This document shows, in pieces, positions 8,912-56,591 of a stretch of 56,591 nucleotides of DNA. How positions within the stretch are numbered: the stretch's first letter is position 1; every line of letters begins with the position of its first letter. Source of the DNA: an uncultured Mycoplasmatota bacterium (lineage in GTDB: Bacteria; Bacillota_I; Bacilli_A; RF39; UBA660); assembly GCA_948466315.1 (NCBI GenBank), contig CAOJZZ010000004.1, positions 1 to 56,591 on the forward strand. The letters are read 5' to 3'. Made by a program: the position numbers and the translations under genes. Under the pieces are notes generated by a model that saw only the letters and a list, made by a program, of their open reading frames with translations, was not told the origin of the DNA and searched no databases.

Positions 8912-10063
8912 ATGAGAAAAATCATCAAATATTTAGATAAACCACTATTAATAATTTCTTTTTTACTATTCATTATTGGTTTAGTGATGGTTTTTTCGGC
9001 GTCTAATGTAACAGCCTATATGTCACATGCTGTAAGTCCTTATAATTATTTTATAAAACAAGGAATATTTTTAATAGCTGGTCTCATTTTCTCTATAATT
9101 ATGATTAATTTTACTACTAAAGCTTATGGAATGTTTTCTTGGGGGCTATTAATTATAACCACCATTAGTTTGATTTTTCTTCCTATCATTGGAAATGCTC
9201 AGAACCAAGCTATTAGCTGGTATGACTTAGGTTTTATAAGTATTCAGCCGAGTGAATTTATTAAAGTAATAACTATTGTCTGGCTAGCTAGTTTTTATGA
9301 AAAAAACAGCAAAAAATTAAATAGTTATGTCAAAAGTTTGTTCCCTTTAGCTATCTGTGGGATAATAGCAGCTTTAATTTTTATTCAACCCGATTTAGGA
9401 ACAACCATAATTTATTGCACTATTGTAGGAACCATCTTTTTAGCAGTACCCATAAAAAAAGAAATAAAAAATAAAACTATCTTTTCATTACTTGGGTTAG
9501 TACTATTTGCTGGATTTGCTATTATTGGAAGTGGAAAAACTCTTTTATTTGAAAGACAACTACAAAGATTTGATTTCTCAAATCCTTGTGATAAATTACT
9601 AACTACAGGAAACCAAGTATGTAATGGTTATATTGCTATTAATAATGGAGGACTAACAGGTGTTGGCTTAGGGAATTCTACTCAAAAGTATTTATATTTA
9701 CCAGAACCATATACAGATTTTATCTTTGCTATAATTATTGAAGAATTAGGAGCCATTACAGGTATAATAATTATTTTACTATATATTGTCTTGTTATATA
9801 GGATTTTATTAATTGGTAGAAATAGTCTCACTAATAGAGGAGCCATTATGTGTTATGGAGTGGCAATTTATATCTTTATTCATATAGCTGTTAATCTATT
9901 AGGACTATTTGGACTAATGCCAATGACTGGAATTCCATTGCCATTTATGAGTTATGGAGGAAGTTTTGCTATCTGTTTAATAGCATCATTAACACTAGTT
10001 CAACGTGTTAGTGTAGAAAATGGTATCATGAGTAATAAAGAAATAACAAAAATAAAAAAATAA
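8912..10063 (+). CDS. ftsW: SEDS-family peptidoglycan polymerase (FtsW/RodA)
   Basis: QPSEF.K, QPDLGT, LPEPYTDFIF, P.TGIPLPFMSYGGS. Confidence 0.85.
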   Translation: MRKIIKYLDKPLLIISFLLFIIGLVMVFSASNVTAYMSHAVSPYNYFIKQGIFLIAGLIFSIIMINFTTKAYGMFSWGLLIITTISLIFLPIIGNAQNQAISWYDLGFISIQPSEFIKVITIVWLASFYEKNSKKLNSYVKSLFPLAICGIIAALIFIQPDLGTTIIYCTIVGTIFLAVPIKKEIKNKTIFSLLGLVLFAGFAIIGSGKTLLFERQLQRFDFSNPCDKLLTTGNQVCNGYIAINNGGLTGVGLGNSTQKYLYLPEPYTDFIFAIIIEELGAITGIIIILLYIVLLYRILLIGRNSLTNRGAIMCYGVAIYIFIHIAVNLLGLFGLMPMTGIPLPFMSYGGSFAICLIASLTLVQRVSVENGIMSNKEITKIKK

Positions 10064-27736: not shown

Positions 27737-27746
27737 TGGAGGCTTT

Positions 27747-29174: not shown

Positions 29175-29517
29175 TAATTTTTTTGTTAATAAAGTAAAGT
29201 AGAAAGGAACCTTATCTTAACAAAATTATTTAAATATTTAATATATTGAAATATATCTTATATTTATGAAGATAACTTATTTTTGTAGTTATTTAGTATA
29301 AATAAAGTTATTTTAATAGATAAATAGTTATAAAATATCATATCCATTATTAAATTATCTCTCAAAATTATAAATATCCTAAGTCCTTACTCTATAATAA
29401 ATATTAAAATAACTTTAACTAATTAATGCTCTAATATCTATTCGATACAAAAAACTACCTTCATTGACAAGTAAGCTATTTTTGATATAATTATATATAG
29501 AATAGGAGTTCAGCTTT

Positions 29518-31047: not shown

Positions 31048-31062
31048 AAAAAGGAGTAGTAT

Positions 31063-31614: not shown

Positions 31615-31796
31615 TATTATTTTATAATTAAAATACCAAAAAAAATACAGCCTACTAAGGATGTGTTTTTTCTATAAATAAATATTTCATAATAAAAAGG
31701 TTACCAGTTATAAGTAACCAAATCAAATGAAATTACTAATTATGTATAAATTTATATTATAATTAATATACAAGAATCAGCATGTAACAGTTCTAA

Positions 31797-32954: not shown

Positions 32955-33702
32955 TATCAACACCTCCAATTAAGAAAAAGAAACTATCTCTTAAATTAGT
33001 AGTTTTAGTTTCCTTTTTTATTTGTTCTGGAGTACCACTTTTAATAACTTTCCCCTTATTAACCATAAAAACTAAATCACAAATATTTTCAGCTTCCTCC
33101 ATATAATGAGTAGAATAAAGAATAATTTTTTTCTTTTTCTTCTCTTTTTTGATAAAATCCAAAATAATTTGACTAGAAATAATATCTAAACCACTAGTAG
33201 CTTCATCTAATATATAGTATTTTGGATTATGAATTAAACACCTAGCAATATTAACACGTTGTGCTTGTCCCGTAGATAAATTTTCAATACGATTATATAA
33301 AAAACTCTCCATTTCCAAAGTTTTTGCTATTTCTTTAATTCTTTTTTCAATATCTTCACTAGGTACTTTATAAAATTCACAACACATTTTTAAAAGTTCA
33401 TATGCTGAAATAGATTTATATATTTTAGTATTACCTGAAAGATAAGCTATTTGCTGTTTAATTTGCAATTCGTTTTTTTGATAAGACATATTATCAAAGA
33501 AAATACTACCAGAAGTTGGATTTAGAATACCTCCAATCATTCGTAAAAGTGTCGTTTTACCAGCTCCATTAGGACCTAAAATACCAATAATTTGTCCATC
33601 ATGAGCCTCGAACGAAATATCATTAACAGCAAAAAATTCATTTGTCTTTTTACCATTAACTTGTTTTATAAATTTTTTCTTAAGATTTGTAACTTTAATC
33701 AT
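32944..33702 (-). CDS. ABC ATP-binding protein, NatA-like
   Basis: GPNGAGKTT, LSTGQ, ILDE, STH; start placed at MIKV after SD. Confidence 0.9.
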   Translation of the reverse strand: MIKVTNLKKKFIKQVNGKKTNEFFAVNDISFEAHDGQIIGILGPNGAGKTTLLRMIGGILNPTSGSIFFDNMSYQKNELQIKQQIAYLSGNTKIYKSISAYELLKMCCEFYKVPSEDIEKRIKEIAKTLEMESFLYNRIENLSTGQAQRVNIARCLIHNPKYYILDEATSGLDIISSQIILDFIKKEKKKKKIILYSTHYMEEAENICDLVFMVNKGKVIKSGTPEQIKKETKTTNLRDSFFFLIGGVDNEK

Positions 33703-33764
33703 ATTTTCTCCTTTACCAAATATCAAAAATATTGTATCATAGAATAAGAAGAAGGAGAAGTGAT

Positions 33765-34118
33765 ATGTTATTAATTGAGTATAAAAAATGTTCAACTTGT
33801 AAAAAGGCTAAAAGTTATCTTATTAATCATAAATTAAAATTTACACAAAGATGCATTATAGAAGAAACACCATCCAAAGAAGAGTTAAAAAAATGGAGTG
33901 AGCATTATCAAATACCACTTAAAAAGTTTTTTAATACTAGTGGTATAAAATATCGTGAATTAAACTTAAAAGAAAAACTTCCTAATATGACAGATGCTGA
34001 AAAACTAGAGATTCTCTCATCTGATGGAATGCTTATAAAAAGGCCTATTCTAATAACAGATAGTAAGCTCTATCTTGGTTTTAAAGAACAACAATGGCAA
34101 GAATTATTACAAAATTAA
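33765..34118 (+). CDS. ArsC/Spx-family (YusI-like) protein
   Basis: CSTCKKA, FFNTSG..YREL, MLIKRPIL. Confidence 0.9.
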   Translation: MLLIEYKKCSTCKKAKSYLINHKLKFTQRCIIEETPSKEELKKWSEHYQIPLKKFFNTSGIKYRELNLKEKLPNMTDAEKLEILSSDGMLIKRPILITDSKLYLGFKEQQWQELLQN

Positions 34119-34288
34119 ATTATTATAATTAATACTTTTATAAATAATTAATTATAAGTTATTAAAACTAACTATAATATTTAAATACTTTTTGTGTAAA
34201 AAAAACATAAAATTAATAAGAAACTAAATTTATAAAAATGTTCTATTAATTTGATATAGACACTTTTATATAAAAAAGGAGTATATGT

Positions 34289-35725
34289 ATGGATACAAAA
34301 AAGAATGAAAAAGATACTAATAATTTAAAAGATAAACAAGCAAAAGAATTATCAAATGAAAAAAAACAATCTCAATCTAAAAAGGGCATAGTAACTATTG
34401 TAATAGTTATAGCAGTTATTTTAACACTAGCCTTCTCAGTCTATAAATTTTATTTTGGCAACTCTAAAAAGATAATTACTAGTTCTATGGATAGTCTTTC
34501 TGGTAGATTAGAGAGTTTCTTAAAAGATAATAATGATGATTATGACTATGGAGAAAACTATACTGCTACAAGTAAACTAACAATAGATGCCTCAAGTGAA
34601 ATTTTAGATACTCTAGCAACCACAGCTCCAGAATATGAAATGTACAATAATATAATTAAAAATTTAAAGAAATTAGACACATCTATTATAACCTCACAAA
34701 GTAAAAAAGATAAAAAAATGTTAATGAAAATAGACAGTAAATTACAAGATGAAGATATTATTAATATTAATTATTTAGTACAAAATAATAAACAATACTA
34801 CTTAATAAAAGGATTATTCGATAATTATGTTGATGGTGGAGAAAATAAATACTTTGAAAATTTAGAAGAGAGTGCCTCAACTATCGAAGATATGCAATAC
34901 GTTTATGATTTAGCATTAGAATCGCTAAAGAAAAATTTAAAAGATGACTATTTTACTAATGAAAATGAGAAAATCAAGGTAAATGAAAAAGATGTTAATG
35001 CTAGAAAAGTTATTTTAACTATTGATAATAAAGCGGCAAAAGAATTAGCTCAAGCTATTTTAAAAGACTTGAAAAAATCAAAAAAAGCTACTAAAATTTT
35101 AGAAAAAGTAAACTCTAATTTTAAAGATGCTAAAGTAGAAGACGATACAGAAATATTTGGTGACGGTGAAAAAATTTGTTATATTGCTTATGTTGACAAA
35201 CTAACTTATAAAAACTTAATGCAAAAAATAGAAGTACATAATAGTAATGAGTCTTTTGCTATTGCGCATGAAGAAACAAATAATAAAGACCAAGATTCTT
35301 TAAATATTTATGAAAATGATAATTTAATTGGAATCATAAATGTAAAAGAGAAAAAAGATGGTTTCTTATTTGAATTATTAAATGATTCTAAACAAAGTAT
35401 TGGTACTCTAAACATTTCTAAAAAAGATCAAGAAACAACTACAAAACTTGATATTGATATAGAAGGTATGAAAATCACCTTTAATATAAACAGTACTAAA
35501 AAAGAAGTGAAAAAGTCTAAAGAATATAAAGTAGAATCAAAAATGGATTTAAAAGTAGAAAGTGAAGGAAGCGAAATTATAAGTCTTAAAATGGATGTTG
35601 ATAGTGATATAGTAACAGAGGTAAATATTAAAGAAGAAATTGATAACGCTACTAGTAATTCTTCCATCAATCAAGAAAAATTACAAGAATATATTATGGA
35701 TACCTTTTTTAAATTAGCAAGTTAA
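34289..35725 (+). CDS. Membrane-anchored hypothetical protein, paralog of 29518-31047
   Basis: Single TM; motifs shared with the paralog. Confidence 0.65.
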   Translation: MDTKKNEKDTNNLKDKQAKELSNEKKQSQSKKGIVTIVIVIAVILTLAFSVYKFYFGNSKKIITSSMDSLSGRLESFLKDNNDDYDYGENYTATSKLTIDASSEILDTLATTAPEYEMYNNIIKNLKKLDTSIITSQSKKDKKMLMKIDSKLQDEDIININYLVQNNKQYYLIKGLFDNYVDGGENKYFENLEESASTIEDMQYVYDLALESLKKNLKDDYFTNENEKIKVNEKDVNARKVILTIDNKAAKELAQAILKDLKKSKKATKILEKVNSNFKDAKVEDDTEIFGDGEKICYIAYVDKLTYKNLMQKIEVHNSNESFAIAHEETNNKDQDSLNIYENDNLIGIINVKEKKDGFLFELLNDSKQSIGTLNISKKDQETTTKLDIDIEGMKITFNINSTKKEVKKSKEYKVESKMDLKVESEGSEIISLKMDVDSDIVTEVNIKEEIDNATSNSSINQEKLQEYIMDTFFKLAS

Positions 35726-36829
35726 GAAAAGTAATTCTTTATCAAGTAGTGTTGGTATACCAAAAACTATATCAAATAAATTTGTATAAGAGTGTCAAAA
35801 TGATGCTCTTTTTATTTAGAAATACTATATTAAGTCCGATTTTATCAACTATAAGAATGTTAATGTTTCACTTTTATATTTTCTAGTAATTTATTAATAA
35901 TAGTACTAAAAAATATATATTATTATACTTTCTAATATGAATACTAAAGCTTATTCTAGACTTGAAGCAAAAAAAATTAGTTAAAATTTTATTAATCAGG
36001 AAGTTATAATAACTAAGATTATGTTTTTAATTGTGATCATTCTATGCTTTGTTATTATTTTTATAAAGAACCCAAAGTATTATTGAATCTCTTTAAAAAA
36101 GACTAGTAACACTAATAAAAGTAAATCTCTTATCAACTCTAGTATTGATCTTCTAAGAATATGGCTACTTATTTTATTCCCTATAAGATAAGTAATATAA
36201 CTACTTCAATCATAACTTTTCTATTATAGGTTCAATACTAACAATAACTTATATGGTAGTAGTTCTAATTTTAGTCCATAAAAAAACGCCCCACAGACAT
36301 TTAATTTAAATTAAAATAATAATTAAAAGGTACAAAATGGTGCTTTTATTTTTATATGAATTTTTACTTATTTTTGATGATAATTTATTCATAAATGTAT
36401 CTGCTTTACGAAGATAAAGTATTAAAGTTATTTACCCTTTATTACACTAAATATACTATAATTTAACTCTTTTATCAATTGTTTTGTCGTTATAATTAAA
36501 TTTTTTTCATATTTTTTTATAAACTTTATTTAGAAACTATTTATTTAATAGTCATATTTTGGTCTTAGTAAGAATTATATAGGTATAAGTGTATTTAAAA
36601 TTAATAAAAATATAAAAATATTAAACCAGTCAATTTATTAGTCAAAATATTATAAAATATAAATTTAAAGTAAAAACTTATAAAAAATCATAAAGCAGAT
36701 ACCTTTGTGATTTTTTTTAGGCTTTATATTAATTTATTAATGCTTTTTTATCAATATAATTCTAGTTTCTATATAACTAGACAAATAACAAAAAATAATT
36801 ATTAGTTTATTTATACGAGGAATGATTTA

Positions 36830-37891
36830 ATGGAAAAAAATAATTTATATGTTAGAAAAAATATACATCATACAACAGTAACACTTTTAGTAACTTCATT
36901 AGTAGCAGTACTTGTAATTTTTATTAGTATAGGCTATTCTGCTATTAATGCTAGTTTAATGGTAACAGGAGATTTAGAGTATGAAGCAGGTGAAGAATTA
37001 TATAGTATAATAGCAAAATCTTCAAAAGGATTAGATACTAATATTGATTTTGGTGTTGTTCCTACAGCAGATACCTCAGGAGTATATAAAATGAATAGTA
37101 CCAATAGTGATAAATATCCAGTATATTATTACCGTGGAATAGTAGCTAATAATAACGTTAAATTTGCAGGCTTTTGTTGGAAGATAGTAAGAACAACAGA
37201 TACTGGTGGAATAAAACTTATTTATAATGGTACACCTAGTGATGGAAGTTGTAATAATACAGGAGAAGTAAGTCAGATAGAAAAAAGTACTTTTAATAGT
37301 TATAAAAATGAAGCTAAAGATATTAAACATTGTGGCTATACATATGATACAAATACAGATTCCACAATAAAATCCTATATAGATAACTGGTATTCTAAGA
37401 ATATGGTAAGCTATACTAGTATGTTAGAAGACACAGTATGGTGTAATGATAGAAGTATATCTAAAACATCGACTTATATTATAACTTATGGAGGCGCAGT
37501 AAGAAATTTTGAATTACCATATAGACCAAGTATAATCTGTCCAAATGCAAGTGATAGATATACAGTAAGTAGTAGTATAGGAAATGGATTATTAAAATAT
37601 CCCGTAGCGTTATTAACAGCCGATGAAGCAAAGTTAACAGGAAATCACTTTAGTGAATCATCAAGTGGATATCTTCATACTGGTTTATCGTGGTGGACAA
37701 TGACGCCTTACAACTCAAGCACCTACTTCAACTATAGTCAAATGATAGTCGTGTACTCTACTGGCTACATAAACAGTTACGACGTGTATCATTCGTACGG
37801 CGTCCGTCCAGCGTTATCTTTGAAGCTTGGAACTAGGATATCTAGTGGAGATGGGAGTTACTCCAATCCATATCAAGTTATAGGTGGATGA
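36830..37891 (+). CDS. Surface protein with C-terminal CLec-type (GVRP) domain; candidate DGR target, copy B
   Basis: Close paralog of 21824-22870; most divergent in the WW...GVRP segment, which is NNC-rich. Confidence 0.75.
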   Translation: MEKNNLYVRKNIHHTTVTLLVTSLVAVLVIFISIGYSAINASLMVTGDLEYEAGEELYSIIAKSSKGLDTNIDFGVVPTADTSGVYKMNSTNSDKYPVYYYRGIVANNNVKFAGFCWKIVRTTDTGGIKLIYNGTPSDGSCNNTGEVSQIEKSTFNSYKNEAKDIKHCGYTYDTNTDSTIKSYIDNWYSKNMVSYTSMLEDTVWCNDRSISKTSTYIITYGGAVRNFELPYRPSIICPNASDRYTVSSSIGNGLLKYPVALLTADEAKLTGNHFSESSSGYLHTGLSWWTMTPYNSSTYFNYSQMIVVYSTGYINSYDVYHSYGVRPALSLKLGTRISSGDGSYSNPYQVIGG

Positions 37892-38432: not shown

Positions 38433-39476
38433 ATGTTTTTTAAAAAGATTGATGAAAGAATAAAAGTATTATTTTTAATGATGTTATTATTGTTTGCTTT
38501 AGTTGTAGGAAGAGTTTTCTACATTCAAGTTATTGATTATAAAAAGCTAAATAAATATGCATCTAATTTGTGGAGTAGAGATTTACCAATAGAAGCTAAC
38601 AGAGGATTAATTAAGGACAGAAATGGAGTCGTTTTGGCCGATAACTTAACCACAACGAGTCTTGTATTAATTCCCAATCAAATAAAGAATAAAGATAAAA
38701 CAACTAAAGAATTAGCCGAAATATTAGGTGTAACTTATGATGAGATGAAAGAACATGTTTACAAAAAAGCATCAATTGAAAGAGTTCATCCTGAAGGAAG
38801 AAGATTATCTTATGATGTAGCAGAAAAAATATCAGCTTTGGAACTACCTGGTGTATATCTTGTAAAAGAAGCTAAGAGATATTATCCTTATGGTAATATG
38901 TTATCACATAGTCTAGGTTATGTTGGTATAGATAATCAAGGTCTATCAGGATTAGAATTAAAATATGATAAATATTTAACTGGAAAAAGTGGTGCTATTA
39001 AGTATTTTTCTGACGCCAAAGGTAATAAACTAAATTTATCAGAAATTTATGTTGAGCCTCAATCAGGTATGAATATAAATTTAACCATAGATATAAATAT
39101 CCAAAAATCCATAGAACGAGAACTAGATAATATTGTAGATATGTTCTCACCAGAAATGGCATTAGCTATTGTTATGAATCCCAAAACAGGGGAAATTTTA
39201 GGTATGGGTTCACGACCTGATTATGACCCTAATAAATATAAAGATTATTCTCAAGAAATACTAAGTCGTAACTTACCAATTTGGTCTTCTTATGAACCAG
39301 GTTCAACTTTCAAAGTAGTTACAATGGCTACAGCTGTAGAAGAGAAAGTAGTAGACTTAGAAAAGGATCATTTCTATGATGGGGGTAGTGTTAATGTAGA
39401 AGGTTCGGTATTAAAATGTTGGAAGGCAGGGGGGCATGGAGAACAAACATTTCTTCAGGTATTACAAAATTCTTGT
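38433..39476 (+). CDS. spoVD: SpoVD fragment 1 of 3 (codons 1-348: TM, PBP dimerisation domain, SxxK)
   Basis: RYYPYG...GYVGIDNQGLSGLE, YEPGSTFK, CWK.GGHG.QTFLQVLQNSC; similarity stops at the SCN motif. Confidence 0.92.
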
Positions 39477-39676
39477 AACCATGGGTTGTAGCAAAAGATA
39501 CTTTATTAATAGCAAAAAATCAATCATTATAACAATATTAAAGTATCTTGTTTTTATATTGGTAATTAGTTGATTTCATTAAGTAACATAAAATCATTAT
39601 ACTAATTTTAAAATGCTTTCTAAATTAATACTTAAGATATTATCACAGATTAATCATACAACAAACTATCAAAATA

Positions 39677-44266: not shown

Positions 44267-45901
44267 ATGGATATAATAAAAGCAAGAAAGGAATTATTAC
44301 TTGGAAAAACTATATATGATATGAACTTAAGAGTAGTTGATTACGGCAGGGTATCAACAGATAAAGATAATCAAGTAAATTCCCTTACTAATCAGATTAA
44401 CTATTTTAATGAAATGATCTCTAGTATCAAAAACTGGACTCATATAAGAAGTTATAGTGATGAAGGAATAAGTGGAACGAGAGTAGAAAAAAGAGAAGAA
44501 TTTTTAAGAATGATAGAAGATGCAAGACTTGGCAAAATTGATTTAATATTAACTAAAGAAGTATCTAGATTTGCTCGTAACACTATTGATAGTATTAGTT
44601 ATACTCAGACCTTATTAAAGTATGGTGTAATAGTCTTTTTTATCTCAGATAATATAAATACTCTTTACCCTGATAGTGAATTTAGACTAACTCTTATGGC
44701 GAGTATGGCTCAAGATGAAGTTAGAAAGTTATCAGAAAGAGTTAAGTTTGGTATTAAAAGAAGTATTAAAGATAGAAAGGTAGGCGGAGGGGGACTTTAT
44801 GGTTATATAAAAAAAGATTGTAAACTAATAATAAATGAGAAAGAAGCTCCTGCTGTTAGGATGCTATATTCCTTATATTCAAGTGGAGAATATGGTTTTA
44901 AGAAAATAGGAGAAGAACTAGCAAGTAATGGTTATTACACTAAAAAGGGCAAGATTTTTAGTGATACTACTCTAAAGAAAATGTTAAATAATCCAAGATA
45001 TAAAGGTTATTATACAGCTAATATGTCAGAAGTAGAAGATTATAAAACTCATAGAAAAGTAAAAAAGCCTAAAGACGAATGGATTATCGAAAAAGATAAA
45101 AAAGGAGATGTTCCCGCTATTGTCAGCGAAGAACTATGGGAAAAAGCTAATGAAATATATAAAGAAAAAAATAATAAATGGAATAAAAACGTTTTAAATA
45201 AGGAGTATTATTTAGAAAATAGAAATTATACTTCTAAAATATTTTGTATAGAACATAAAAAAACATTTATCAGAAGTGCCAGTGGTAAAAGAAAAAACAA
45301 TCCAGTATGGCAATGTGGTGAGTATTTAAGAAACGGAATAAAGGGTTGTGCTTCTCCACGTTTATTTGAAAAAGACTTAAATAATATTTTTTCTAAAATA
45401 ATAGAAAATATTATTGATAATAAAGAAACACTTTTGAATATGATAATAAACGATTATATTACTCTAATAAAAGATAATAATACAAATAATAAGCAGTATT
45501 ATTTAAAACAAAAACTACAAGAACAACAAATATATAAAGATAAATTATTCGATATGTTTTTAAAGGAATTAATAACAGATATTGAGTTCTTAGAAAGAAA
45601 TAATAAAATATCCTCAGAAATTTCCACTATTAAAAAAACTATAAATAAATTAGAAGCTAATCAAAATTCTTTAGAGTATTATGAAAAGGAAAAATCTAAA
45701 ATAAGCAAAGAAATCTTACTCTTATTAAATATAGAAGATAATATAGGAAAATATTTTAACTTATTTATTAATAAAGTTTTAGTTAGTAAGATAAATAATA
45801 ATAGAAAAAATATTAAATTAACCATAATATTTAATTATAAATACCCTAATAAAGATGTAGAATTTATATATAACAACAAAGATATCTTAATAACAAATTA
45901 A
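44267..45901 (+). CDS. Large serine recombinase 1 (SpoIVCA-like architecture)
   Basis: YGRVST, DEGISGT, KEVSRFARN, recombinase domain, C..H...C...C zinc ribbon, coiled coil. Confidence 0.96.
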   Translation: MDIIKARKELLLGKTIYDMNLRVVDYGRVSTDKDNQVNSLTNQINYFNEMISSIKNWTHIRSYSDEGISGTRVEKREEFLRMIEDARLGKIDLILTKEVSRFARNTIDSISYTQTLLKYGVIVFFISDNINTLYPDSEFRLTLMASMAQDEVRKLSERVKFGIKRSIKDRKVGGGGLYGYIKKDCKLIINEKEAPAVRMLYSLYSSGEYGFKKIGEELASNGYYTKKGKIFSDTTLKKMLNNPRYKGYYTANMSEVEDYKTHRKVKKPKDEWIIEKDKKGDVPAIVSEELWEKANEIYKEKNNKWNKNVLNKEYYLENRNYTSKIFCIEHKKTFIRSASGKRKNNPVWQCGEYLRNGIKGCASPRLFEKDLNNIFSKIIENIIDNKETLLNMIINDYITLIKDNNTNNKQYYLKQKLQEQQIYKDKLFDMFLKELITDIEFLERNNKISSEISTIKKTINKLEANQNSLEYYEKEKSKISKEILLLLNIEDNIGKYFNLFINKVLVSKINNNRKNIKLTIIFNYKYPNKDVEFIYNNKDILITN

Positions 45902-45948
45902 AAAACGATTATTTTTTAGCTAAAAGTATCTCTTGCTTTACTCAAAGA

Positions 45949-46146
45949 AACCCAGGGTTTGTAAAATTAGGACAATTACTTGGTAAAAAACGTTTATTCT
46001 CCTACTTAGATAAGTTTGGTTTTGGTTCTAAAACTGGAATAGATTTAAATGGAGAGGGTAAAGGTATTATTTTTAATCTTGATAAAGTAGGTAATGTCGA
46101 ACTATCTACTACTGCCTTTGGTCAAGGAGTAAGTGTAACTCCTATT
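45949..46146 (+). CDS. spoVD: SpoVD fragment 2 of 3 (66 codons, no start codon; not in ORF track)
   Basis: Manual translation NPGFVKLGQLLGKKRLFSYLDKFGFGSKTGIDLNGEGKGIIFNLDKVGNVELSTTAFGQGVSVTPI. Confidence 0.93.
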
Positions 46147-46277
46147 CATCTTACTGTCTATTAAATGATACCTTTGCTCTAACGAAAGGAATAACTAGTA
46201 AATATACAAAGAAATTATAAATATATTTGGCAAGAGAATTAATTTTATAGTGTATAATTTTGTATTATTTAGGGATT

Positions 46278-48450: not shown

Positions 48451-50079
48451 ATAGATTTATATACAGTAAGAAATAATATCCTAAAAGGAAAATCTATTCA
48501 AGAGTTAAATTTACGAGTATGCTTTTATGCTAGAGTATCAACAGAAAAAGATGAACAACTTCACTCATTAACTGCTCAAATATCTTTTTTTAAAGATTAT
48601 ATAAAAAAAATTCCTAACTGGAAATACATTGATGCCTATATAGATGAGGGAATTAGCGGAACTAGAGTAAAAAAACGTGATGCTTTTTTAAAAATGATAA
48701 ATGATGCTAAAAACAATAAATTTGATTTAATTCTTACTAAAGAAATTTCAAGGTTTTCAAGAAATACTCTAGATAGTATTAAATATACTCAAGAGTTATT
48801 AGAAAATGGAGTAGGTGTTTATTTTTTAAATGATAATATTAATACAATATTACCAGACTCTGAATTAAGATTAACTATAATGGCTAGTGTTGCCCAAGAT
48901 GAGGTTAGAAAGCTATCAGAAAGGGTTTCCTTTGGTATGAGACGCAGTATAGAAAATGGTGTTGTATTAGGCTCTTCTAATATTTATGGTTTTACTAAAG
49001 AACATGGCAAATTAATAATAGATCAAAAAGAATCTCTTATGATTAAACTAATTTTTGATAAATATGCTAATACAAATGATGGCTTATCAAAAATATCAAA
49101 AGATTTATATCTTCTCGGTTATAAAAGTAAAACAGGTAAAAGAATAGATCCAACTATATTAACAAGAATTATCAAAAACCCTAAGTACAAAGGATATTAC
49201 TGTGGTAATAAAAGTAAAATAATTGACTATCGTAACAAAAAAAAGAAAAGTCTTGACCAATCAGAATGGATAATTTATAAAGATCAAAAAAATATTCCCG
49301 CTATTATTAGTGAAGAATTATGGGAAAAGGCTAATGAAAAATTATTAAAAAGACAAAAAAGTATTAAAAACAAAGTACAAGATAAAGCAATCTTTCAAAA
49401 TAGATATACTTATTCTGGAAAATTATATTGCCATAATCATCAATTAACTTATCACAGAAATGGTGCTGGTAAAAGAAAAGAAAATCCAGTTTGGGAATGC
49501 CAAGTATATCGTAAAGAAGGATTAAAAAGTTGTAATAGCCCAAGAATATATGAAAAGGAATTAGATAAAATTTTTTATTATATATTTTCAAAAATTCTAA
49601 AAAGTAATCAAAAAATAACAGAAGATTTATTAACTGAGTGTCAAACTTATTTAAAAAATCAAAATAGTATGACAAAAATAAAAGAATTAAAAACAAAACT
49701 AGAAGAACTTGAATTAAAAAAGAAAAAATTATTAGAATTACTAATAGATGATATCATAGAAAAAAAAGAATATCAGAGCCAAATTGTTTTATTGAAAAAG
49801 AAATCAGATGAGTATAATAGAAAAATAAAAGAAATAAAAAACATTTCAAATAATAAGCATACCATTAGAAAAAAGATCACCAACCTACAAAATAGTTTTA
49901 AAAATTGTCTTCAAGATAAAGAATGTTTTAAATCATTTTTTACTGAAATAGTTGACTATATTATAGTTTGTCAAAAAGATAGTATTAATAAAAAACAATC
50001 AATTTTAAAAATAGTTCTTAAAACTGGTAATAATTTAATAGTAACCAGTAATAATTTAGGTAAGGAGTATCATTTTTGA
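48451..50079 (+). CDS. Large serine recombinase 2 (542 aa from an ATA start)
   Basis: Frame is open 81 codons upstream of the track ORF and includes catalytic YARVST and DEGISGT; SD AGGAGG 8 nt before ATA; clear paralog of recombinase 1. Confidence 0.93.
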   Translation: MDLYTVRNNILKGKSIQELNLRVCFYARVSTEKDEQLHSLTAQISFFKDYIKKIPNWKYIDAYIDEGISGTRVKKRDAFLKMINDAKNNKFDLILTKEISRFSRNTLDSIKYTQELLENGVGVYFLNDNINTILPDSELRLTIMASVAQDEVRKLSERVSFGMRRSIENGVVLGSSNIYGFTKEHGKLIIDQKESLMIKLIFDKYANTNDGLSKISKDLYLLGYKSKTGKRIDPTILTRIIKNPKYKGYYCGNKSKIIDYRNKKKKSLDQSEWIIYKDQKNIPAIISEELWEKANEKLLKRQKSIKNKVQDKAIFQNRYTYSGKLYCHNHQLTYHRNGAGKRKENPVWECQVYRKEGLKSCNSPRIYEKELDKIFYYIFSKILKSNQKITEDLLTECQTYLKNQNSMTKIKELKTKLEELELKKKKLLELLIDDIIEKKEYQSQIVLLKKKSDEYNRKIKEIKNISNNKHTIRKKITNLQNSFKNCLQDKECFKSFFTEIVDYIIVCQKDSINKKQSILKIVLKTGNNLIVTSNNLGKEYHF

Positions 50080-50089
50080 GACTACTATA

Positions 50090-50752
50090 CAGCAAGTAAC
50101 AGCTGTTTCTGCAGTAGTTAATGGTGGTTATCTATATGAGCCATATATTGTAAAAAGTATTTCAGAAAATGAAACAAATACTATTATTAAGGAAAATAAT
50201 AAAAATTTAGTTCGTAAAGTAATCAGTAGTGACACCTCAAGGATTATGCGACACGCTCTAGAAAGTGTCGTGGCTAAAGGGGGAGGAAAATCAGCCTATA
50301 TTGAAGGATATCGAATTGGTGGTAAAACAGGAACAGCCCAAAAGGTAAAAGATGGCAGATATTTAGTTGGAAATTATATTATGTCCTTTATGGCTGTAGT
50401 ACCATCAAATGATCCAGAAGCAGTATTGTACTTAGCTATAGATAATCCTAAAAATACAGCCCTTTTATCTAGTTATACAACAACTCCGATTGCTAGAAGA
50501 ATCCTTCTAGATATAATAGATGCTTTAGGAATTGAAAAACAAGAAAATGCCATGCCTAAAGACTTAGAATGGACGGATAAAGTAACTTATGAAGTTCCAA
50601 ATGTAGTAGGAAAATCAGTTGATGAAGCTAAGAAATTATTATCAAACTTTACTATTGAATACTCAGGAACAGGAGAAACTGTTGTAGAACAATCACCTAA
50701 GGCTAAAGAAAAACTAGAAGATCAAGGAACTGTAAGGCTATTATTAGAATAA
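50090..50752 (+). CDS. spoVD: SpoVD fragment 3 of 3 (220 aa; KTG motif + PASTA)
   Basis: QQVTAVSAVVNGGYLYEPYIVK... in frame with track ORF 50246; GYRIGGKTGTAQKVKDG. Confidence 0.93.
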   Translation, partial: QQVTAVSAVVNGGYLYEPYIVKSISENETNTIIKENNKNLVRKVISSDTSRIMRHALESVVAKGGGKSAYIEGYRIGGKTGTAQKVKDGRYLVGNYIMSFMAVVPSNDPEAVLYLAIDNPKNTALLSSYTTTPIARRILLDIIDALGIEKQENAMPKDLEWTDKVTYEVPNVVGKSVDEAKKLLSNFTIEYSGTGETVVEQSPKAKEKLEDQGTVRLLLE

Positions 50753-50883: not shown

Positions 50884-52635
50884 ATGAATGATACAATTGG
50901 TCAAAAAGGGGACGTTAAAGATAAAAGAAGAACACTAATAATAACTAAAGAAAATAAAAGGAAATTACAAGAATATGAAAAAGATATTAAAGCAGAAGAA
51001 CTGCATCAATTAGAAAAAAATGTGAGAAACCTTCAATATATAACATTATTAAAAGCACTACCATTGGTCTTTGCTAAAGAAGTAGTAAAAACTATTATTC
51101 CAACATCTGATGCAAAAAAAGAAATATTAGATAGCGAAGAATCACTAGACCATATAAATAGTTCCAATTTATTCAAAGATAATTATAAGTATGTAACTAA
51201 CTCTTTAGGTAATAATAAAGAACCTATAGAAAAAATTGAAGACATAGATTCTTTATTTTTGGATGATAGTGAACAAGTAGTTGAAGATATAGAGCATATT
51301 TCTCAAGAAACATTAAAAGAAGATTTGAAAGAAGAATATCTAGAACCAGTATATCAAAATAGCAATAATATAAATAGTTTCTTAAATAAAAATTATTCCT
51401 ACGATAATCAAAATTCAGAAAAGTTATCTTACAAAGGTATTGATGAAACATCATATCCAAAAAAACAAGTCACTGAAGAAAAAGCATCCCCAAAAAGATA
51501 CCAAGTCGATATAAAGAAGCAAGAACAAGACAAAATTCCTATAAAAGAAGAATTAGATGATTTCTTAGAAGATAGTTTAGCAGCAGCTAATTTAGATAAA
51601 TTAACAAATCATAAAATAATTGATGAGTATGATAAAAAATTAAAAGATATTAGGGTTGATCTAAGAAAACTAATTTTTGAATATAATACTTTATTAGATG
51701 ATGCCTCACAACTATATACTTCTAAAGAGGCTGAAAAATTATTAAATAAACTAAATGAAATTATCAAAAAAGTAGAAGAACTGAAAAAAAAATTAGAGCT
51801 TCCTGATATTGATAAGTATGATGATAATTATTTATATACTTTAGTCAGTAATTATATGGAAGAGTTCAAAAATGAGAAATTTGCAGACGAAATAAAAGAC
51901 TCTGAATTATATATAACTATTTCTAAAAAATTAGAAGAATTGGATGAAAAAAAGGATATTTTAAAAAATAAGGTGGATAGCAGAAAAGAACATTTAGAAA
52001 TGGATGAGGAGCAATTTGCAGATATTAAAGAGAAGTATTTTGATTATCAAACCTTTAATGATAGACTACTACGTTTACAACAAGAACAAGAGCAATTACT
52101 TAATGATATTAATAAAAAAATAGCTCATTCCACTAATAGCTATGAGCGTGTTGTAGTTCAAGTAAAAACTATGGAGCGTCAAAGTAGAAAATTATTACAA
52201 TTATTGGCTATGCAGATGACCATTCCTGGCGCTAGGAGTGCAAAGGCCTTAGCAGCCACTGCCTTAACATTTATGTATTTTGCTAAAAGAATGATGAAGA
52301 CAACTACTAAAACCAAAAGATACAAGGTAGTTAAAGTAACAGATTATCAAATAGAAATTGAAAATAGTATTTCTAAATTAGACGATATTGTATCACTATT
52401 AAAGAAAAGTTCAGTTCAATTAGAAACTCTAATTAAAGAATTTAAAAATAAGTATCAAGAGTACTTTGGCATACTTCCTGAATGTGATCAGTTACTTGTT
52501 AATTTAGAAAAAGTAAAAGAAAATTTAAAGGAAAAAGAGTATGAAATAGAAAAAATCAAATTAGAGCAAGAAAGAAATTTAGCAAGAAACAATGAAAAAG
52601 TAAAATTATTAACTAAAGAAGAAGAAGTAATTTGA
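50884..52635 (+). CDS. Coiled-coil hypothetical protein
   Basis: E/K/L-rich heptads; no Mur-ligase motifs. Confidence 0.65.
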   Translation: MNDTIGQKGDVKDKRRTLIITKENKRKLQEYEKDIKAEELHQLEKNVRNLQYITLLKALPLVFAKEVVKTIIPTSDAKKEILDSEESLDHINSSNLFKDNYKYVTNSLGNNKEPIEKIEDIDSLFLDDSEQVVEDIEHISQETLKEDLKEEYLEPVYQNSNNINSFLNKNYSYDNQNSEKLSYKGIDETSYPKKQVTEEKASPKRYQVDIKKQEQDKIPIKEELDDFLEDSLAAANLDKLTNHKIIDEYDKKLKDIRVDLRKLIFEYNTLLDDASQLYTSKEAEKLLNKLNEIIKKVEELKKKLELPDIDKYDDNYLYTLVSNYMEEFKNEKFADEIKDSELYITISKKLEELDEKKDILKNKVDSRKEHLEMDEEQFADIKEKYFDYQTFNDRLLRLQQEQEQLLNDINKKIAHSTNSYERVVVQVKTMERQSRKLLQLLAMQMTIPGARSAKALAATALTFMYFAKRMMKTTTKTKRYKVVKVTDYQIEIENSISKLDDIVSLLKKSSVQLETLIKEFKNKYQEYFGILPECDQLLVNLEKVKENLKEKEYEIEKIKLEQERNLARNNEKVKLLTKEEEVI

Positions 52636-52719: not shown

Positions 52720-53709
52720 GTGAAAAACATGCTATTATTAACCAAAGCCGTTTTTGCAGTAATGATTGGTTTCTTATCAGCGACCGTTTTAGGTTTGTTT
52801 TTAATACCAATATTAAAGAAAATGCGTGTTGGACAGAAAATAAGCATCTTTGTAGGAGAGTCACATCGTAAAAAAGAGGGTACTCCCACCATGGGAGGTT
52901 TAATTTTTATATTACCAACAGTTATTACAACAATAGCCCTGATATTTATGGGTAAAATTCCTTATACCTCAAACTTAGGTATTGTCTTATTGGTCTTTAT
53001 TGGTTATGCCTGTATCGGTTTTTTAGATGATTTTTTATCAATTCATAAAGGAAATAATGAAGGTCTAACGACTTATCAAAAACTATTTATGCAAGTTTTA
53101 ATTGCTATCGGTTTTTTCTATATTTATATGAAAAGTGGTGGTCAAACCTCATGGGTAGTTGGTACACTACATATTGATATAGAATTAAGTTGGCTCTATG
53201 GCTTATGTATTTTATTTATTTTAGTAGGTGCTAGTAATGCAGTAAATTTAACTGATGGAGAAGATGGTTTAGCTGGGGGGTTATCTGCTATTGCTTTTAT
53301 TGCCTTTAGTTTGATATCTCTAACTGTAGGCTTCGAAGATATTGGTATCTTTGGTCTAATATTAGTAGGTAGCTTAATGGGTTTCTTAATTTACAATACT
53401 CATCCTGCTAAAGTATTTATGGGAGATACAGGTTCTCTTGCCTTAGGTGCTGTTATGGGGGCTATTGCTATCTTGACTCATAGAGAGTTAACTTTATTAG
53501 TAGTCGCTGGTATCTTTGTAATAGAAACCTTAAGTGTTATTATTCAAACGTTTTGGGTTCAAGTATTTAAACGAAAATTGTTTTTAATGACACCACTTCA
53601 TCATCATTTCGAAAAATTAGGTTGGATAGAAACTGATATAGTAAAATTATTTTGGGTATGCGGTCTGATATTAGCAATGGCTGGAATTATCTTTGGCGTT
53701 TGGTTATAA
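52720..53709 (+). CDS. mraY: Phospho-N-acetylmuramoyl-pentapeptide transferase
   Basis: K.GTPTMGG, GFLDD, NLTDG.DGL, VFMGDTGSL, PLHHHFE. Confidence 0.97.
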   Translation: MKNMLLLTKAVFAVMIGFLSATVLGLFLIPILKKMRVGQKISIFVGESHRKKEGTPTMGGLIFILPTVITTIALIFMGKIPYTSNLGIVLLVFIGYACIGFLDDFLSIHKGNNEGLTTYQKLFMQVLIAIGFFYIYMKSGGQTSWVVGTLHIDIELSWLYGLCILFILVGASNAVNLTDGEDGLAGGLSAIAFIAFSLISLTVGFEDIGIFGLILVGSLMGFLIYNTHPAKVFMGDTGSLALGAVMGAIAILTHRELTLLVVAGIFVIETLSVIIQTFWVQVFKRKLFLMTPLHHHFEKLGWIETDIVKLFWVCGLILAMAGIIFGVWL

Positions 53710-53771: not shown

Positions 53772-54767
53772 ATGAGTAAAAAGATGGATAAATTATTGTT
53801 TATAGCAGTCATTATATTATCACTATTTGGTCTAGTAATGATTTACTCAGCATCCAGTATTTGGGCTGAATATAAATTTAATGATAGTTTTCATTACCTA
53901 AAATATCAAGGGGCTTTTTTAGTTATCGGAATAATGATTTTACTATTGTTTTCAAAAATAAACTATGAAGTTTATCATAATAAATCAAACACTTTACTAC
54001 TAAGTTGTATTATTCTTTTGGTATTAGTATTAATACCTGGAATTGGTAGTGTAAGAAATGGTAGTAGGTCTTGGTTTGGAATCGGTCCTTTAGGTATTCA
54101 ACCCAGCGAATTTGCGAAATTAGCAGCCATCATTTTTGCTAGTAAATATTTATCTAATAGTAATAAATTTTTAAAAAGCTACAAAGAAGGCGTATTTCCT
54201 ATTTTAGGTATTACATTACTTTTATTTGGTTTAATCATGCTACAACCAGATTTAGGAACAGGAGTAATCCTAGTAATGTCTATTGTATCTTTACTATTTA
54301 TAGCAGGTGTAAATATGAAATTTTTCTTTGAAGTAGGCTTTTTAGGAGTAATAGGAATAGTGATTTTAATTATTATTGCTCCATATCGTATGGATAGAAT
54401 TACTTCTTTTATTGATCCGTGGAGTGATGCCTTAGGTACAGGCTTTCAAATTATTCAAAGTCTTTATGCCATTGGACCAGGAGGATTATTAGGTAATGGT
54501 TTTCAAAAATCAATTCAAAAACACTTTTATTTACCAGAACCACAAACAGATTTTATTTTTTCTATTATAGCCGAAGAATTTGGTGTAGTAGGAGCATTTA
54601 TTGTTGTAGGCCTTTTTTCAATAATACTTTGGCGTGGTATTAAAATAGCCTTAAATACCAAAGATGCCTTTGCTAAATATTTATCTTTTGGTATGATTTT
54701 TCAAATGATTTTTCAAACTCTCATGAATTTAATGGTTGTTATTGGAATGATACCAGTAACAGGGTAA
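53772..54767 (+). CDS. spoVE: SpoVE (SEDS) 5' fragment, cut at PVTG; lacks the LPF.SYGGSS C-terminus
   Basis: MIYSASSIWAEYKFNDSF, QPSEFAK, GFQIIQSLYAIGPGG, YLPEPQTDFIF; TAA directly after IPVTG. Confidence 0.88.
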   Translation: MSKKMDKLLFIAVIILSLFGLVMIYSASSIWAEYKFNDSFHYLKYQGAFLVIGIMILLLFSKINYEVYHNKSNTLLLSCIILLVLVLIPGIGSVRNGSRSWFGIGPLGIQPSEFAKLAAIIFASKYLSNSNKFLKSYKEGVFPILGITLLLFGLIMLQPDLGTGVILVMSIVSLLFIAGVNMKFFFEVGFLGVIGIVILIIIAPYRMDRITSFIDPWSDALGTGFQIIQSLYAIGPGGLLGNGFQKSIQKHFYLPEPQTDFIFSIIAEEFGVVGAFIVVGLFSIILWRGIKIALNTKDAFAKYLSFGMIFQMIFQTLMNLMVVIGMIPVTG

Positions 54768-54976
54768 GTCCTGCTAAGTAACTGAAAACGACAATGAAAA
54801 TAAACCTTTATTTTATAAGGTATTTAGAGAACCTAATAAAAATATAAAAGATAAAAAATTGACAAAAAAGTAAAAGTACATTAAAATATAAAATTTTGCA
54901 GATAAAAAATGGGGGTAATTTTACCATTACTGCAAAGAAGTTGATTTGAGCAATACCAAAGATACCTCACATATTT

Positions 54977-55545
54977 TTGGAGGAAATAATGATAAGAAAA
55001 ATTGATGTAGGAAGTGTTTTTGGTACTGCCCAAAGAACTAGTTATGAATATATGAAATTACTAAAAGAAAAACATAAGGATGGACTTCACTCTTTACCTT
55101 TTGCTCATCATGAATCTAAGGTTGTTATGTATGAGTCAAATAAAATATATATTAATGGAGGAATAATTGATAATGAAATTATTACCCCTATATCTAATAG
55201 GAAATATTATAAAGAAAATTTAGATAAAATAGAAATTAGAAATAAAAACTTTTATTTTCTGTTAAAGATGATGGCTATATCTGTATATTTTATCACATGG
55301 CAAAAAATGAAAATGATATTAGTAATTCTTCTAAAAATCAATATTTTAGAAAAAGTGAAATGCAAAATTATTTTGATCCAAGAATATGGTAAATTATAAC
55401 TATAATAGAAAATAATCACAATACTAATCATAATGGTCATCCTTATCATAAGAAAAATCACGAATATAGAATAGGACATATTTTTGCTAGGAAGAAAAAT
55501 AATTGTTTGGTACATAAATATTTCTATGAAATAACCTTACTTTAA
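54977..55545 (+). pseudogene. Degraded hypothetical gene
   Basis: Protein-like sequence appears to continue in another frame after about 55250 with an internal stop. Confidence 0.35.
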
Positions 55546-55853
55546 AATCATGATTTGATAACTAATATAAAGAAGTTACCATTCAAGCAATTAGAGGTCA
55601 TTGCATGAATATATTTGATAAAAATTATAAGAAAAAAGAGAAAGATATTATAAAATTTTCCCATACTATATTATTATCAAAATTATTGCTTTTAAATTAT
55701 GAATATAATGGTAAAACTATAACAGATTTTGAAAAAATAGAATTTGAGAAATAATTTTTTGCTCATTAACTACTATATAAATAAGAGTAAAAAATGTTAT
55801 AATGTATCTAACAGACAAATAGTAAGTTTGTTGAAATGATTGGAGATGTAATT

Positions 55854-56489
55854 ATGGCTTTTGATTATAAGAAAGAATATAAGGAATTTTATATGCCTAA
55901 GAATAAACCTAGTATTGTTGAAATTCCTAAAATGAATTATATTGCAGTTAGAGGACAAGGAAATCCAAATGATGAAAATGGAGATTATAAAAATACAATA
56001 GGTTTATTATATAATGTTGCTTATACAATTAAAATGAGTTATAAAGGTACTCATAAAATAGACGGCTTTTTTGAATATGTTGTTCCTCCATTAGAGGGAT
56101 TTTGGTGGCAGGAAAATACAAAAGGAATGGATTATAATAGAAAAGATGATATGAAATTTATTTCTATAATTAGATTGCCAGATTTTGTAACAAAAGAAGA
56201 TTTTATTTGGGCTACCCAAGAAGCAACAAAGAAAAAGAAACAAGACTTTTCAAGAGTTGAATTTTTAACTTATGATGAGGGGATTTGTGTTCAATGTATG
56301 CACAATGGTAGTTATGATGATGAACCTGCTACTGTTGAATTAATGCACAAATATATGAAAGAAAATGGATATGAATTAGATATAACAGATACTAGATACC
56401 ATCACGAAATATATTTAAGTGATCCAAGAAAATGCGATGTAAGTAAATTAAAGACAGTAATAAGACATCCAATTAAAAAGATTAAATAA
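55854..56489 (+). CDS. GyrI-like small-molecule-binding protein
   Basis: DYKKEYKEFY.P, PLEGFWW, CVQCMH.GSYD.EP, HHEIYLSDPR. Confidence 0.88.
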   Translation: MAFDYKKEYKEFYMPKNKPSIVEIPKMNYIAVRGQGNPNDENGDYKNTIGLLYNVAYTIKMSYKGTHKIDGFFEYVVPPLEGFWWQENTKGMDYNRKDDMKFISIIRLPDFVTKEDFIWATQEATKKKKQDFSRVEFLTYDEGICVQCMHNGSYDDEPATVELMHKYMKENGYELDITDTRYHHEIYLSDPRKCDVSKLKTVIRHPIKKIK

Positions 56490-56522
56490 TTACAAATTAC
56501 AAGTCAATTTAGGAGAGTAAGT

Positions 56523-56591
56523 ATGAAAAGGAAAGGGTTAATTATAATTGGCATTCTCACAATATTATTAGCATTTATGGATATAAGTGGA
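56523..56591 (+). CDS. 3'-partial membrane/secreted protein
   Basis: SD AGGAG; MKRKGLIIIGILTILLAFMDISG to the window end. Confidence 0.5.
   Translation, partial: MKRKGLIIIGILTILLAFMDISG

Follow-up and report, generated by a model that had tools for sequence, protein, structure and literature searches.

A spoVE-type gene split by a serine recombinase element that is probably excised during sporulation in an uncultured RF39 bacterium

The 56,591-nucleotide stretch of DNA analysed here (hereafter the window) is the complete contig CAOJZZ010000004.1 (denoted C4) of an uncultured Mycoplasmatota bacterium of the order RF39 (GCA_948466315.1; denoted G000), whose assembly is a metagenome-assembled genome (MAG) of 1.5 Mb in 79 contigs, 71% complete and with 3.5% contamination. 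At the right end of the window a spoVE-type gene, which encodes a protein of the SEDS (shape, elongation, division and sporulation) family, is split by an element whose other end lies on a second contig, C9, next to a gene for a large serine recombinase (LSR). We propose, with a probability of roughly 0.66, that this is a spoVE-intervening element which excises in sporulation to rebuild the gene. Judged by sequence comparison, the gene is split, the element has two recognisable ends and an in-frame crossover, and it belongs to a family with a fixed target that spreads horizontally; that excision takes place we infer, and its tie to sporulation rests on analogy with known systems. C-numbers denote contigs of G000 unless prefixed with another genome, and L-numbers denote the loci compared, mostly from other species.

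The SEDS open reading frame (ORF) at 53772..54767 (plus strand) encodes 331 residues ending in ...GMIPVTG, with a TAA stop codon at 54765-54767. Its product matches the Pfam family PF01098 (FTSW_RODA_SPOVE) with 335.7 bits over positions 3-324 of 356 (to 327 in another scan); about 30 C-terminal positions of the family are absent, and no continuation through LPF.SYGGSS, as in a full-length protein, follows the frame in the window. The gene directly follows mraY (52720-53709), as it does in relatives. In the 11 intact orthologues, all those that were read, the motif IP(V/I)TG(V/I)TLPFLSYGGSS runs through with no gap. At 50% identity or more, 26 of the 40 relatives in the sample have a match, which in 25 lies in an open frame of 362-405 aa; the other (G012, 342 aa) is split at the same GG dinucleotide by an element with another arm sequence. 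Four SEDS matches were found by Pfam across the whole genome: the truncated gene, a full-length ftsW-like gene at 8912..10063, a rodA-like gene on C65 which is also intact, and an orphan on C9; none is a C-terminal piece in 54768-56591. These results bear out an earlier, sequence-only reading of the window, according to which the frame ends at IPVTG-TAA ahead of an LPF.SYGGSS segment that is intact in the ftsW at 8912, and the remaining 1.8 kb holds accessory genes and no such segment. The features at the junction are as follows.

53772..54763, plus strand: 5′ part of spoVE (host DNA, through the crossover GG), recognised from PF01098, TIGR02615 and its position after mraY.
54762..54763, plus strand: deduced crossover dinucleotide GG, bases 1-2 of the Gly331 codon, from comparison of attL and attR junctions.
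54764..54810, plus strand: element-side arm of attL, equivalent to the right arm of attP, which completes the Gly codon with its third base and provides the TAA; conserved over 12 attL junctions.
54778-54785, plus strand: GTAACTGA within this arm, the inverted partner of TCAGTTAC on C9.
54764..56591, plus strand: left end of the element, 1828 nt, from homology to the left end of the L029 element.

Since the window is the entire contig, the downstream part was looked for on other contigs. The sole orphan SEDS C-terminus of the genome lies at C9:17572-17667 on the minus strand; it is start-less, reads (G)VTLPFLSYGGSSLLISMASMGILLNISKEQK-stop (VTLPFLSYGGSS...K), and comprises 32 codons corresponding to PF01098 positions 323-355. 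It is separated by 87 nt from the end of the LSR gene (C9:17755-19332, minus strand, 525 aa), and on its 3′ side are a lipoprotein gene and genes for HI0933-like flavoproteins. The two pieces sum to a normal gene of 362 codons, given that the orthologues read straight through. The sequence-only reading had predicted, downstream of the window, a recombinase followed by a start-less LPF fragment and then murG, and had regarded the lack of any spoVE 3′ fragment as evidence for a simple truncation or a chimera; recombinase and fragment are both present on C9, whereas the place expected for murG is taken by the lipoprotein and HI0933-like genes.

The ends of C4 and C9 overlap neither each other nor any other G000 contig. 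That they are the ends of one element follows from homology to L029, from the synteny of the host flanks, and from the match of one truncated gene to one orphan end. L029, from another species, holds a contiguous 8.67-kb element on a single contig which ends in a homologous LSR and an attR/spoVE 3′ piece, and window positions 54765-55704 (940 nt past the junction) are 88-93% identical to L029 1002-2083. In intact and split loci alike, spoVE is preceded by mraY, and an HI0933-like gene lies downstream both of intact spoVE (L011) and of the 3′ piece (L042), as on C9. The element thus comprises 1828 nt on C4 and 13,429 nt on C9 (C9:17668-31096), at least 15,257 nt, with an unassembled gap between them.

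When one genome per species was scanned, LSR relatives were found at 78 loci, in 29 of which the LSR is 52-98% identical to that of the G000 spoVE element. A spoVE C-terminal piece follows the LSR after approximately 90-100 nt in 24 of these 29 loci, and in the other five the sequence ends inside the LSR gene or at most 105 nt beyond it; a SEDS fragment is present in none of the 49 loci with an LSR of at most 38% identity. The 5′ fragment is also present in 11 loci, and nine elements, of 2741 to 9172 nt, are complete. Counting G000 and the 23 loci that have attR, the family spans at least 24 species. In all 12 attL junctions (G000 and 11 others) the Thr codon before the GG varies with the host (ACA, ACG, ACC or ACT) and the base after it is always G, with a stop codon immediately after the junction in 11 of them; in all 24 attR junctions element sequence extends up to the GG, and the next base varies (a in nine, t in seven, g in seven, c in one), in the manner of a synonymous codon position of the host. 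The boundaries between variable and constant sequence at the two ends therefore meet at the GG, which places the crossover at bases 1-2 of the Gly codon, and rejoining there would yield Thr-Gly-Val in frame, as in the 11 intact orthologues; in silico, precise excision restores the spoVE frame exactly. The attP-type arms, TCAGTTAC (element side of attR, C9) and GTAACTGA (element side of attL), are inverted about the GG, as expected for a serine-integrase attP with a 2-bp crossover, a crossover which is here deduced by comparison and not from cleavage. The first 170-250 nt past the junction are 71-88% identical in L028, L038, L042, L043, L044 and L045.

The same target is broken in other ways. 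Of 80 metagenome loci with a spoVE-type SEDS gene, 71 are uninterrupted, three lack the motif and six are broken at, or at most three codons from, the site; the family arm is present in only one of these six (L130). The same GG is broken with different arms in L116, L155 and L195 (G012:C13, junction near 2790), and the break lies three codons later, after VTL, in L121, L127 and L129. As the broken loci mostly have arms other than that of the family, several recombinase families seem to target the SEDS motif, which looks like a hot spot for them. A search of metagenomes for the same species with an empty site did not recover the species, the best match being 83% identical.

In the mechanism that we propose, the LSR would pair attL (window 54762/3) with attR (C9:17666/7), with a cut in each at the GG within the Gly codon; rejoining would free the element as a circle and recreate an uninterrupted spoVE of 362 codons. 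Read in the orientation of spoVE, the right end on C9 presents, in order, a conserved gene for a 44-aa protein, the LSR gene, an attP-type arm and the last 31 spoVE codons, and the 44-aa protein, as directionality factor, would bind the C-terminal region of the LSR. Excision would most likely be triggered in the terminal mother cell during sporulation, by analogy with the skin, SPbeta, gin and yin elements; the gene for the cortex synthase would then be restored where required, and the spore would keep the element.

The genome has features consistent with sporulation. SpoIVA is above cut-off in G000 (689 bits) and in five of five other element-bearing genomes tested, two sigK/sigE-type sigma factor genes are present, and the order RF39 was predicted to be spore-forming in a 2024 survey, in the part of it available to us (PMC10868615). 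There are 20 recombinase-domain (PF07508) matches in the 1.5 Mb of G000, and start-less pieces of genes for YabG, two LysM-repeat proteins and a collagen-like protein lie 1-230 nt past LSR stop codons, which two spoVD pieces follow as well. Those outside the window are:

C1:19878-20408: start-less YabG piece, U57 family positions 109-280.
C22:13569-14015, C52:4262-5089 and C51:383-804: start-less LysM (two) and collagen-like pieces.

spoVD lies in the window in three pieces, at 38433-39491 (TIGR02214 positions 4-348), 45904-46161 (Transpeptidase positions 104-167) and 50081-50749 (Transpeptidase positions 163-298 and PASTA). Each of the two later pieces stands directly after an LSR gene (44267-45901 and 48694-50079), and the first break falls between ...NSCN and PGF.... 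With spoVD in three pieces and spoVE split, both subunits of the cognate bPBP-SEDS cortex synthase, SpoVD and SpoVE, are interrupted. The clustering of LSR elements in spore-related genes is our main indirect argument for excision, as such insertions would be tolerated through exit in the mother cell. The spoVE LSR is only 28% identical to both LSRs of the spoVD elements and its arms are TCAGTTAC/GTAACTGA, not GATAC; GATAC/GTATC motifs occur approximately 19 nt from the spoVD junctions, flanking the pieces, and none lies in the first 40 nt past the spoVE junction, in agreement with the earlier remark that GATAC is not at the +19 offset here, which was taken to suggest a different recombinase. 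As a separate observation, spoIVA is apparently split in G042 (the genome of L034, Clostridium sp. CAG:914), with pieces at C7:30719-31927 (positions 1-404) and C7:49010-49282 (positions 400-492), approximately 17 kb apart.

Several comparisons indicate that the element is spreading between species and is younger than its hosts. All 36 pairs compared have LSR proteins closer to each other (mean 81%) than the adjoining SEDS fragments (mean 64%; r = 0.17). The same holds in 252 of 253 pairs for the right end of the element (its last 1.7 kb) when set against the 400 nt of host flank beyond it, element DNA reaching 94-96% identity against 57-65% in the flank (for example 96.1% against 64.5%, and 95.8% against 57.4%). 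Maximum-likelihood trees conflict: the G000 LSR groups with that of L028 (support 96/97), while the G000 SEDS piece groups with those of L042 and L046 (99/98) and that of L028 is placed elsewhere. No LSR relative above 35% identity was found among isolated phages and plasmids. Continued movement of the family, with the same codon hit every time, implies that integration and excision both work. A wider and more tentative proposal is that spore formation of the RF39 type may need several independent mother-cell excisions, with elements leaving through the lysing mother cell and their circles entering neighbouring species. In G000, recombinase genes are followed by at least seven start-less gene pieces, and the SpoVD-SpoVE genes lie in five pieces, with three elements and unrelated recombinases. 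If this were true, exit from the mother cell would explain element DNA of 94-96% identity in hosts whose flanks are approximately 60% identical, even though the smallest forms have no transfer genes.

The LSR of the spoVE element contains the Resolvase (PF00239, 74.5 bits), Recombinase (PF07508, 75.5 bits) and Zn_ribbon_recom (PF13408, 47.1 bits) domains, and Y8, R10 and S12 of the Y-x-R-x-S motif are invariant in 18 of 18 LSRs. SprA is its second-best solved relative (E 6e-14, residues 48-472). The small gene at C9:19503-19634 encodes the 44-aa protein on the same strand as the LSR, and a counterpart precedes each LSR of the family by approximately 130-170 nt; in a more distant branch the product is 59-82 aa long with a common core. 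A profile of this protein matches 29 loci (L027-L054 and L057; L055 has no upstream DNA), and matches none of the 47 remaining loci (L056 and L058-L104; LSRs of at most 38% identity) and nothing else in G000. By this profile, the 44-aa gene strictly co-occurs with this LSR family, and its ratio of nonsynonymous to synonymous change (pN/pS) of 0.30 indicates that it evolves as a coding sequence. No Pfam family and, in a profile search, no PDB chain (best E 1) matches the protein, and the Atlas returned hypothetical clusters only (0.80-0.84). Modelled alone it forms one helix (residues 26-43) with a loose N-terminus, a fold which is uninformative. Modelled with LSR residues 150-525, it gives an ipSAE of 0.73 (0.73, 0.71 and 0.74 in separate runs), against 0.00 for the best of three controls; of 80 solved complexes 58 attained the mark used, as did 2 of 110 mismatched pairs. 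The runs share at least 84% of contacts, with a partner pLDDT of at least 74, and the contacts are placed at LSR residues 359-399, 462-502 and 509-521, that is, on the long helices past the zinc ribbon and on the C-terminal tail. The 44-aa protein is thus predicted to bind the C-terminal region of the LSR, and we consider it the likely directionality factor. Two loci of the family carry additional copies: L049 has two of the small partner gene (185-445 and 7225-7362), and L051 has, at 7267-7353, a second and weaker SEDS C-terminal piece 1.1 kb past the first; these duplicates may be tandem or nested elements.

A number of results weigh against excision in sporulation. The stretch is present in 18 runs of nine studies, mostly of mouse gut, of which four public runs were examined; among the joints and loose ends listed for these four, with 28 further loose ends outside the listing, none falls at 54762-54765, the raw-read run X20 contributing only 20 reads, and the rejoined junction that the sequence-only reading had proposed to search for did not appear. 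Contigs of X1 and X3 do end or start at 54762-54776, which a branch between occupied and empty sites or strain variants would produce alike, and they are not counted. In the MAG there is neither an attB nor an attP junction, each arm and each host side being present once. The prediction of a third excisable element, with both subunits needing rearrangement, is upheld as to the anatomy and the splitting of both genes; its excision, for which no rejoined junction was found, is inferred. Spo0A is not above cut-off in G000, in a genome 71% complete. No sporulation-type promoter could be assigned: a sigma-70 scan around the recombinase gave 25 sites where 26.9 were expected, which is chance level, and no terminators, and inspection by eye revealed no convincing sigmaE or sigmaK motif either in the conserved block of 60 nt that precedes the 44-aa gene or in the regions upstream of spoVE. 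In view of the horizontal spread, the intactness of the gene pieces cannot be read as the result of long-term selection, and the insertion may be recent; the pN/pS of the C-terminal fragment (0.335) reflects mostly host divergence. The nearest solved relative of the LSR catalytic domain is TnpX (2mhc, E 6e-30). The score of the complex is the model's own confidence, to which likeness to the solved SPbeta integrase-directionality factor complexes in the PDB may contribute. Finally, the assignment to spoVE is borderline. The window fragment scores 382.4 bits against the NCBIfam model TIGR02615 (spoVE), ahead of ftsW (349.4) and rodA (273.9), and falls short of the 448.8 bits set as cut-off for spoVE, which is no surprise when the end of the protein is missing, and its location past spoVD and mraY fits the assignment; intact orthologues score 438-450 bits, with two of six passing, and all six pass the ftsW cut-off (398-409 against 337.5 bits).

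The relationship to TnpX suggests a different division of labour. Transposases of the TnpX/TndX type reportedly act alone in both directions, TnpX being said to carry out excision and insertion with no directionality factor. The element could then excise through an LSR that works both ways by itself, with the 44-aa protein as a regulator or a chaperone of the LSR tail, in line with the nearness of the N-terminal domain to TnpX among solved structures and with a partner that is one helix when modelled alone and has no Pfam, solved-chain or named Atlas relative. We regard this as unlikely, though deserving serious consideration: the strict co-occurrence with the LSR (29 loci against none of 47 distant ones), the position of the gene approximately 130-170 nt upstream on the same strand, and the predicted complex (0.73 against 0.00 for the control), with its contacts on the helices past the zinc ribbon and the tail, all argue against it. 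In the accessible part of PMC10747680, models likewise place other directionality factors on one common recombinase region.

Excision in sporulation also has to be set against insertional knock-out, in which the spoVE motif is no more than a safe landing site for a mobile island that excises rarely, and for transfer alone; carriers would then have no SpoVE, and another SEDS protein would compensate or sporulation would be impaired. The recent horizontal spread, by which the fragments need not have been kept by selection, would fit such a history, as would the patchy distribution of the family: a close LSR homologue (E at most 1e-140) is found in 19 of the 401 genomes of the order sample, G000 included, and in 15 of 146 genera. 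The cargo resembles that of a selfish island (RelB/ParE in the 2.7-3.0-kb forms, a two-component system and an ABC ATPase here), the two other SEDS genes are intact, and no excision product was detected in the MAG or the four public runs. A knock-out nevertheless appears rather improbable to us. The LSR elements of G000 cluster in spore genes (spoVD twice, spoVE, yabG, two LysM genes and a collagen-like gene), which excision in the mother cell predicts and a random safe site does not, and the element provides an exact in-frame crossover. Moreover, all elements of this kind tested in PMC5595907, PMC4191935, PMC6957869, PMC10747680 and PMC5025042 excise in sporulation, according to the portions of these papers that were available.

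The split gene might instead be the ordinary division gene ftsW of the dcw cluster, with the element acting as a reversible switch in growing cells, an explanation to which we give little credence. The ftsW scores of the intact orthologues favour it, and so does the passing of the spoVE cut-off by only two of the six; yet spoVE is the top model in seven of seven proteins, by 30 to 46 bits for the six intact orthologues and by 33 bits for the window fragment. Separate ftsW-like (8912) and rodA-like (C65) genes are intact, and an essential division gene could not remain split in the germ line. In Bacillus subtilis there is a pbp-spoVD...mraY-spoVE cluster, with ftsW elsewhere, and the gene order here, pbp-spoVD...mraY-spoVE, resembles it.

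We reject an assembly artefact, with C4 and C9 from different organisms or a chimeric junction, as very improbable: the incompleteness and contamination of the MAG and the location of the ends on separate, non-overlapping contigs would allow it, but one 3015-nt contig of an independent public run (X2 record 10, 54527-55825) bridges the attL junction, which is thus real, the same attL and attR recur in 11 and 23 other loci, several with both ends on one contig, the flanks are syntenic with those of relatives, and there is a single orphan for the single truncated gene.

The part of the element in the window carries the following cargo, together with a 49-aa ORF and the beginning of one more ORF within 54768-56591.

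54977..55399, plus strand: 140-aa ORF, a shortened copy of a 235-aa ORF of L029, from DNA homology with a gap of approximately 96 nt.
55836..56489, plus strand: GyrI-like small-molecule-binding protein (PF06445, 73.5 bits).

The 140-aa ORF has no Pfam match, and its 235-aa form in L029 is weakly methyltransferase-like (TehB, E 1e-4). Besides the LSR, the C9 part encodes a pair of XRE-type repressors, a two-component system (histidine kinase plus OmpR-type response regulator), an ABC ATPase beside a 787-aa protein that matches no family, one DUF3781 protein, and several unknown proteins. Contigs of the public runs diverge at 55351, 55825 and 56504, within the element, so the cargo differs between strains. 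Over window positions 55820-55949 the summed depth of public-run contigs is 109-451, against approximately 10-30 alongside, and contigs diverge at 55825/55852; this segment of approximately 130 nt, located where the GyrI-like gene begins, recurs in many other sequences from the same samples. Family members of the smallest size (2.7-3.0 kb) are made up of the LSR, the small partner gene and, as sole cargo, a RelB/ParE pair. RelB-type antitoxin and ParE-type toxin genes were located at L046 4017-4557, L028 7021-7628, L044 6985-7630 and L040 7090-7734, the Pfam matches coming from the L046 pair. Neither Pfam nor NCBIfam gave a match to phage genes for structure, packaging or lysis in the 15.3 kb seen (PHROGs not searched; gap unassembled) or in the 2.7-3.0-kb forms, and a phage origin was rejected, there being no phage genes by Pfam. 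Nor did Pfam and NCBIfam reveal a Mob/relaxase gene in the parts of the element seen; two other LSRs of G000 (C38 and C2) have Mob_Pre genes after them. On its gene content and junctions, the element is a non-phage integrative element inserted within the codons of the IPVTG|VTLPF motif of a spoVE-type gene.

Among known elements, Tn4451/Tn4453 of clostridia are related through TnpX, the nearest solved catalytic domain. They are reportedly small integrative elements whose LSR has a 2-bp crossover, and Tn4451 is said to carry a mobilisation gene and to insert at many GA sites with no directionality factor. Unlike Tn4451, the spoVE element has one fixed target codon, a conserved partner protein and, in the parts seen, no Mob gene.

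For gin, which splits gerE in Bacillus cereus ATCC 10987 and is served by GirC and GirX, the available part of the report (PMC5595907) describes a non-phage cargo island, as here, which interrupts a mother-cell sporulation gene, a putative one in the present case, and a serine recombinase with a small extra factor which there rebuilds the gene and here would putatively do so. gin differs in its size of 28.6 kb, its three recombinase genes, its target gerE and its 9-bp overlap (PMC5595907), compared with one LSR in the parts seen, spoVE and a 2-bp GG; members of the spoVE family can be as small as 2.7 kb and pass from species to species, and GirC and GirX were compared by description only. The skin elements in sigK (SpoIVCA in B. 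subtilis; CD1231 and CD1234 in C. difficile) likewise differ greatly in size and have only the recombination unit in common, and their small factor can confer cell-type specificity: in C. difficile, a factor under sigmaE/SpoIIID control confines excision to the mother cell (PMC5025042, sections available to us). In skin, too, the recombinase gene lies at the element's edge next to the 3′ fragment (bioRxiv 10.1101/2022.02.25.481979, as far as accessible). Unlike in skin, the target here is a cortex polymerase gene and not one for a sigma factor, no phage genes are found by Pfam, and excision is predicted. The yin element in yabG of Clostridium botulinum V73 is an LSR element in a sporulation gene, as the spoVE element probably is, and one for which structure models gave a candidate small directionality factor, but it is described as a prophage unique to one strain (PMC10747680, available part), whereas the spoVE family occurs in at least 24 species. 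SPbeta in spsM (SprA/SprB; PMC4191935 and PMC6957869, in part; PDB 9dxh/9dxd) has a unit of the same layout, with attL, directionality factor gene (here a candidate), integrase gene and attR. As an active phage it differs, similarity is low, and no solved chain resembles the 44-aa protein in sequence.

The published list of interrupted sporulation genes, in the sources accessible to us, comprises sigK, spoVFB, spoVR, spsM, gerE and yabG; our literature search, with supplements outside its scope and papers seen in part, returned no report of a split spoVE or spoVD. The present element would add spoVE to this short list of genes rebuilt by excision and, taken with the neighbouring spoVD, is a case of one enzyme complex with the genes for both of its partners split. 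Such elements are abundant in uncultured gut bacteria of the RF39 type (genomes of 1-1.5 Mb), as the 20 recombinase-domain matches in G000 show. Calls of the presence or absence of sporulation genes in MAGs can miss split genes, and spoVD is described as reduced or absent in RF39 in the accessible part of the 2024 survey (PMC10868615). The family also offers natural, comparatively defined attB/attP pairs and a candidate small directionality factor for serine-integrase engineering.

Two further regions of the window lie near spoVD. Positions 27729-37891, between an intact PBP2x-like gene and spoVD, comprise approximately 10 kb of mostly unannotated genes, among them an Spx-like gene and, on the opposite strand, an ABC transporter. 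A 583-aa protein that matches no family is encoded at positions 50884-52635, between spoVD and mraY, a place usually taken by murE and murF.

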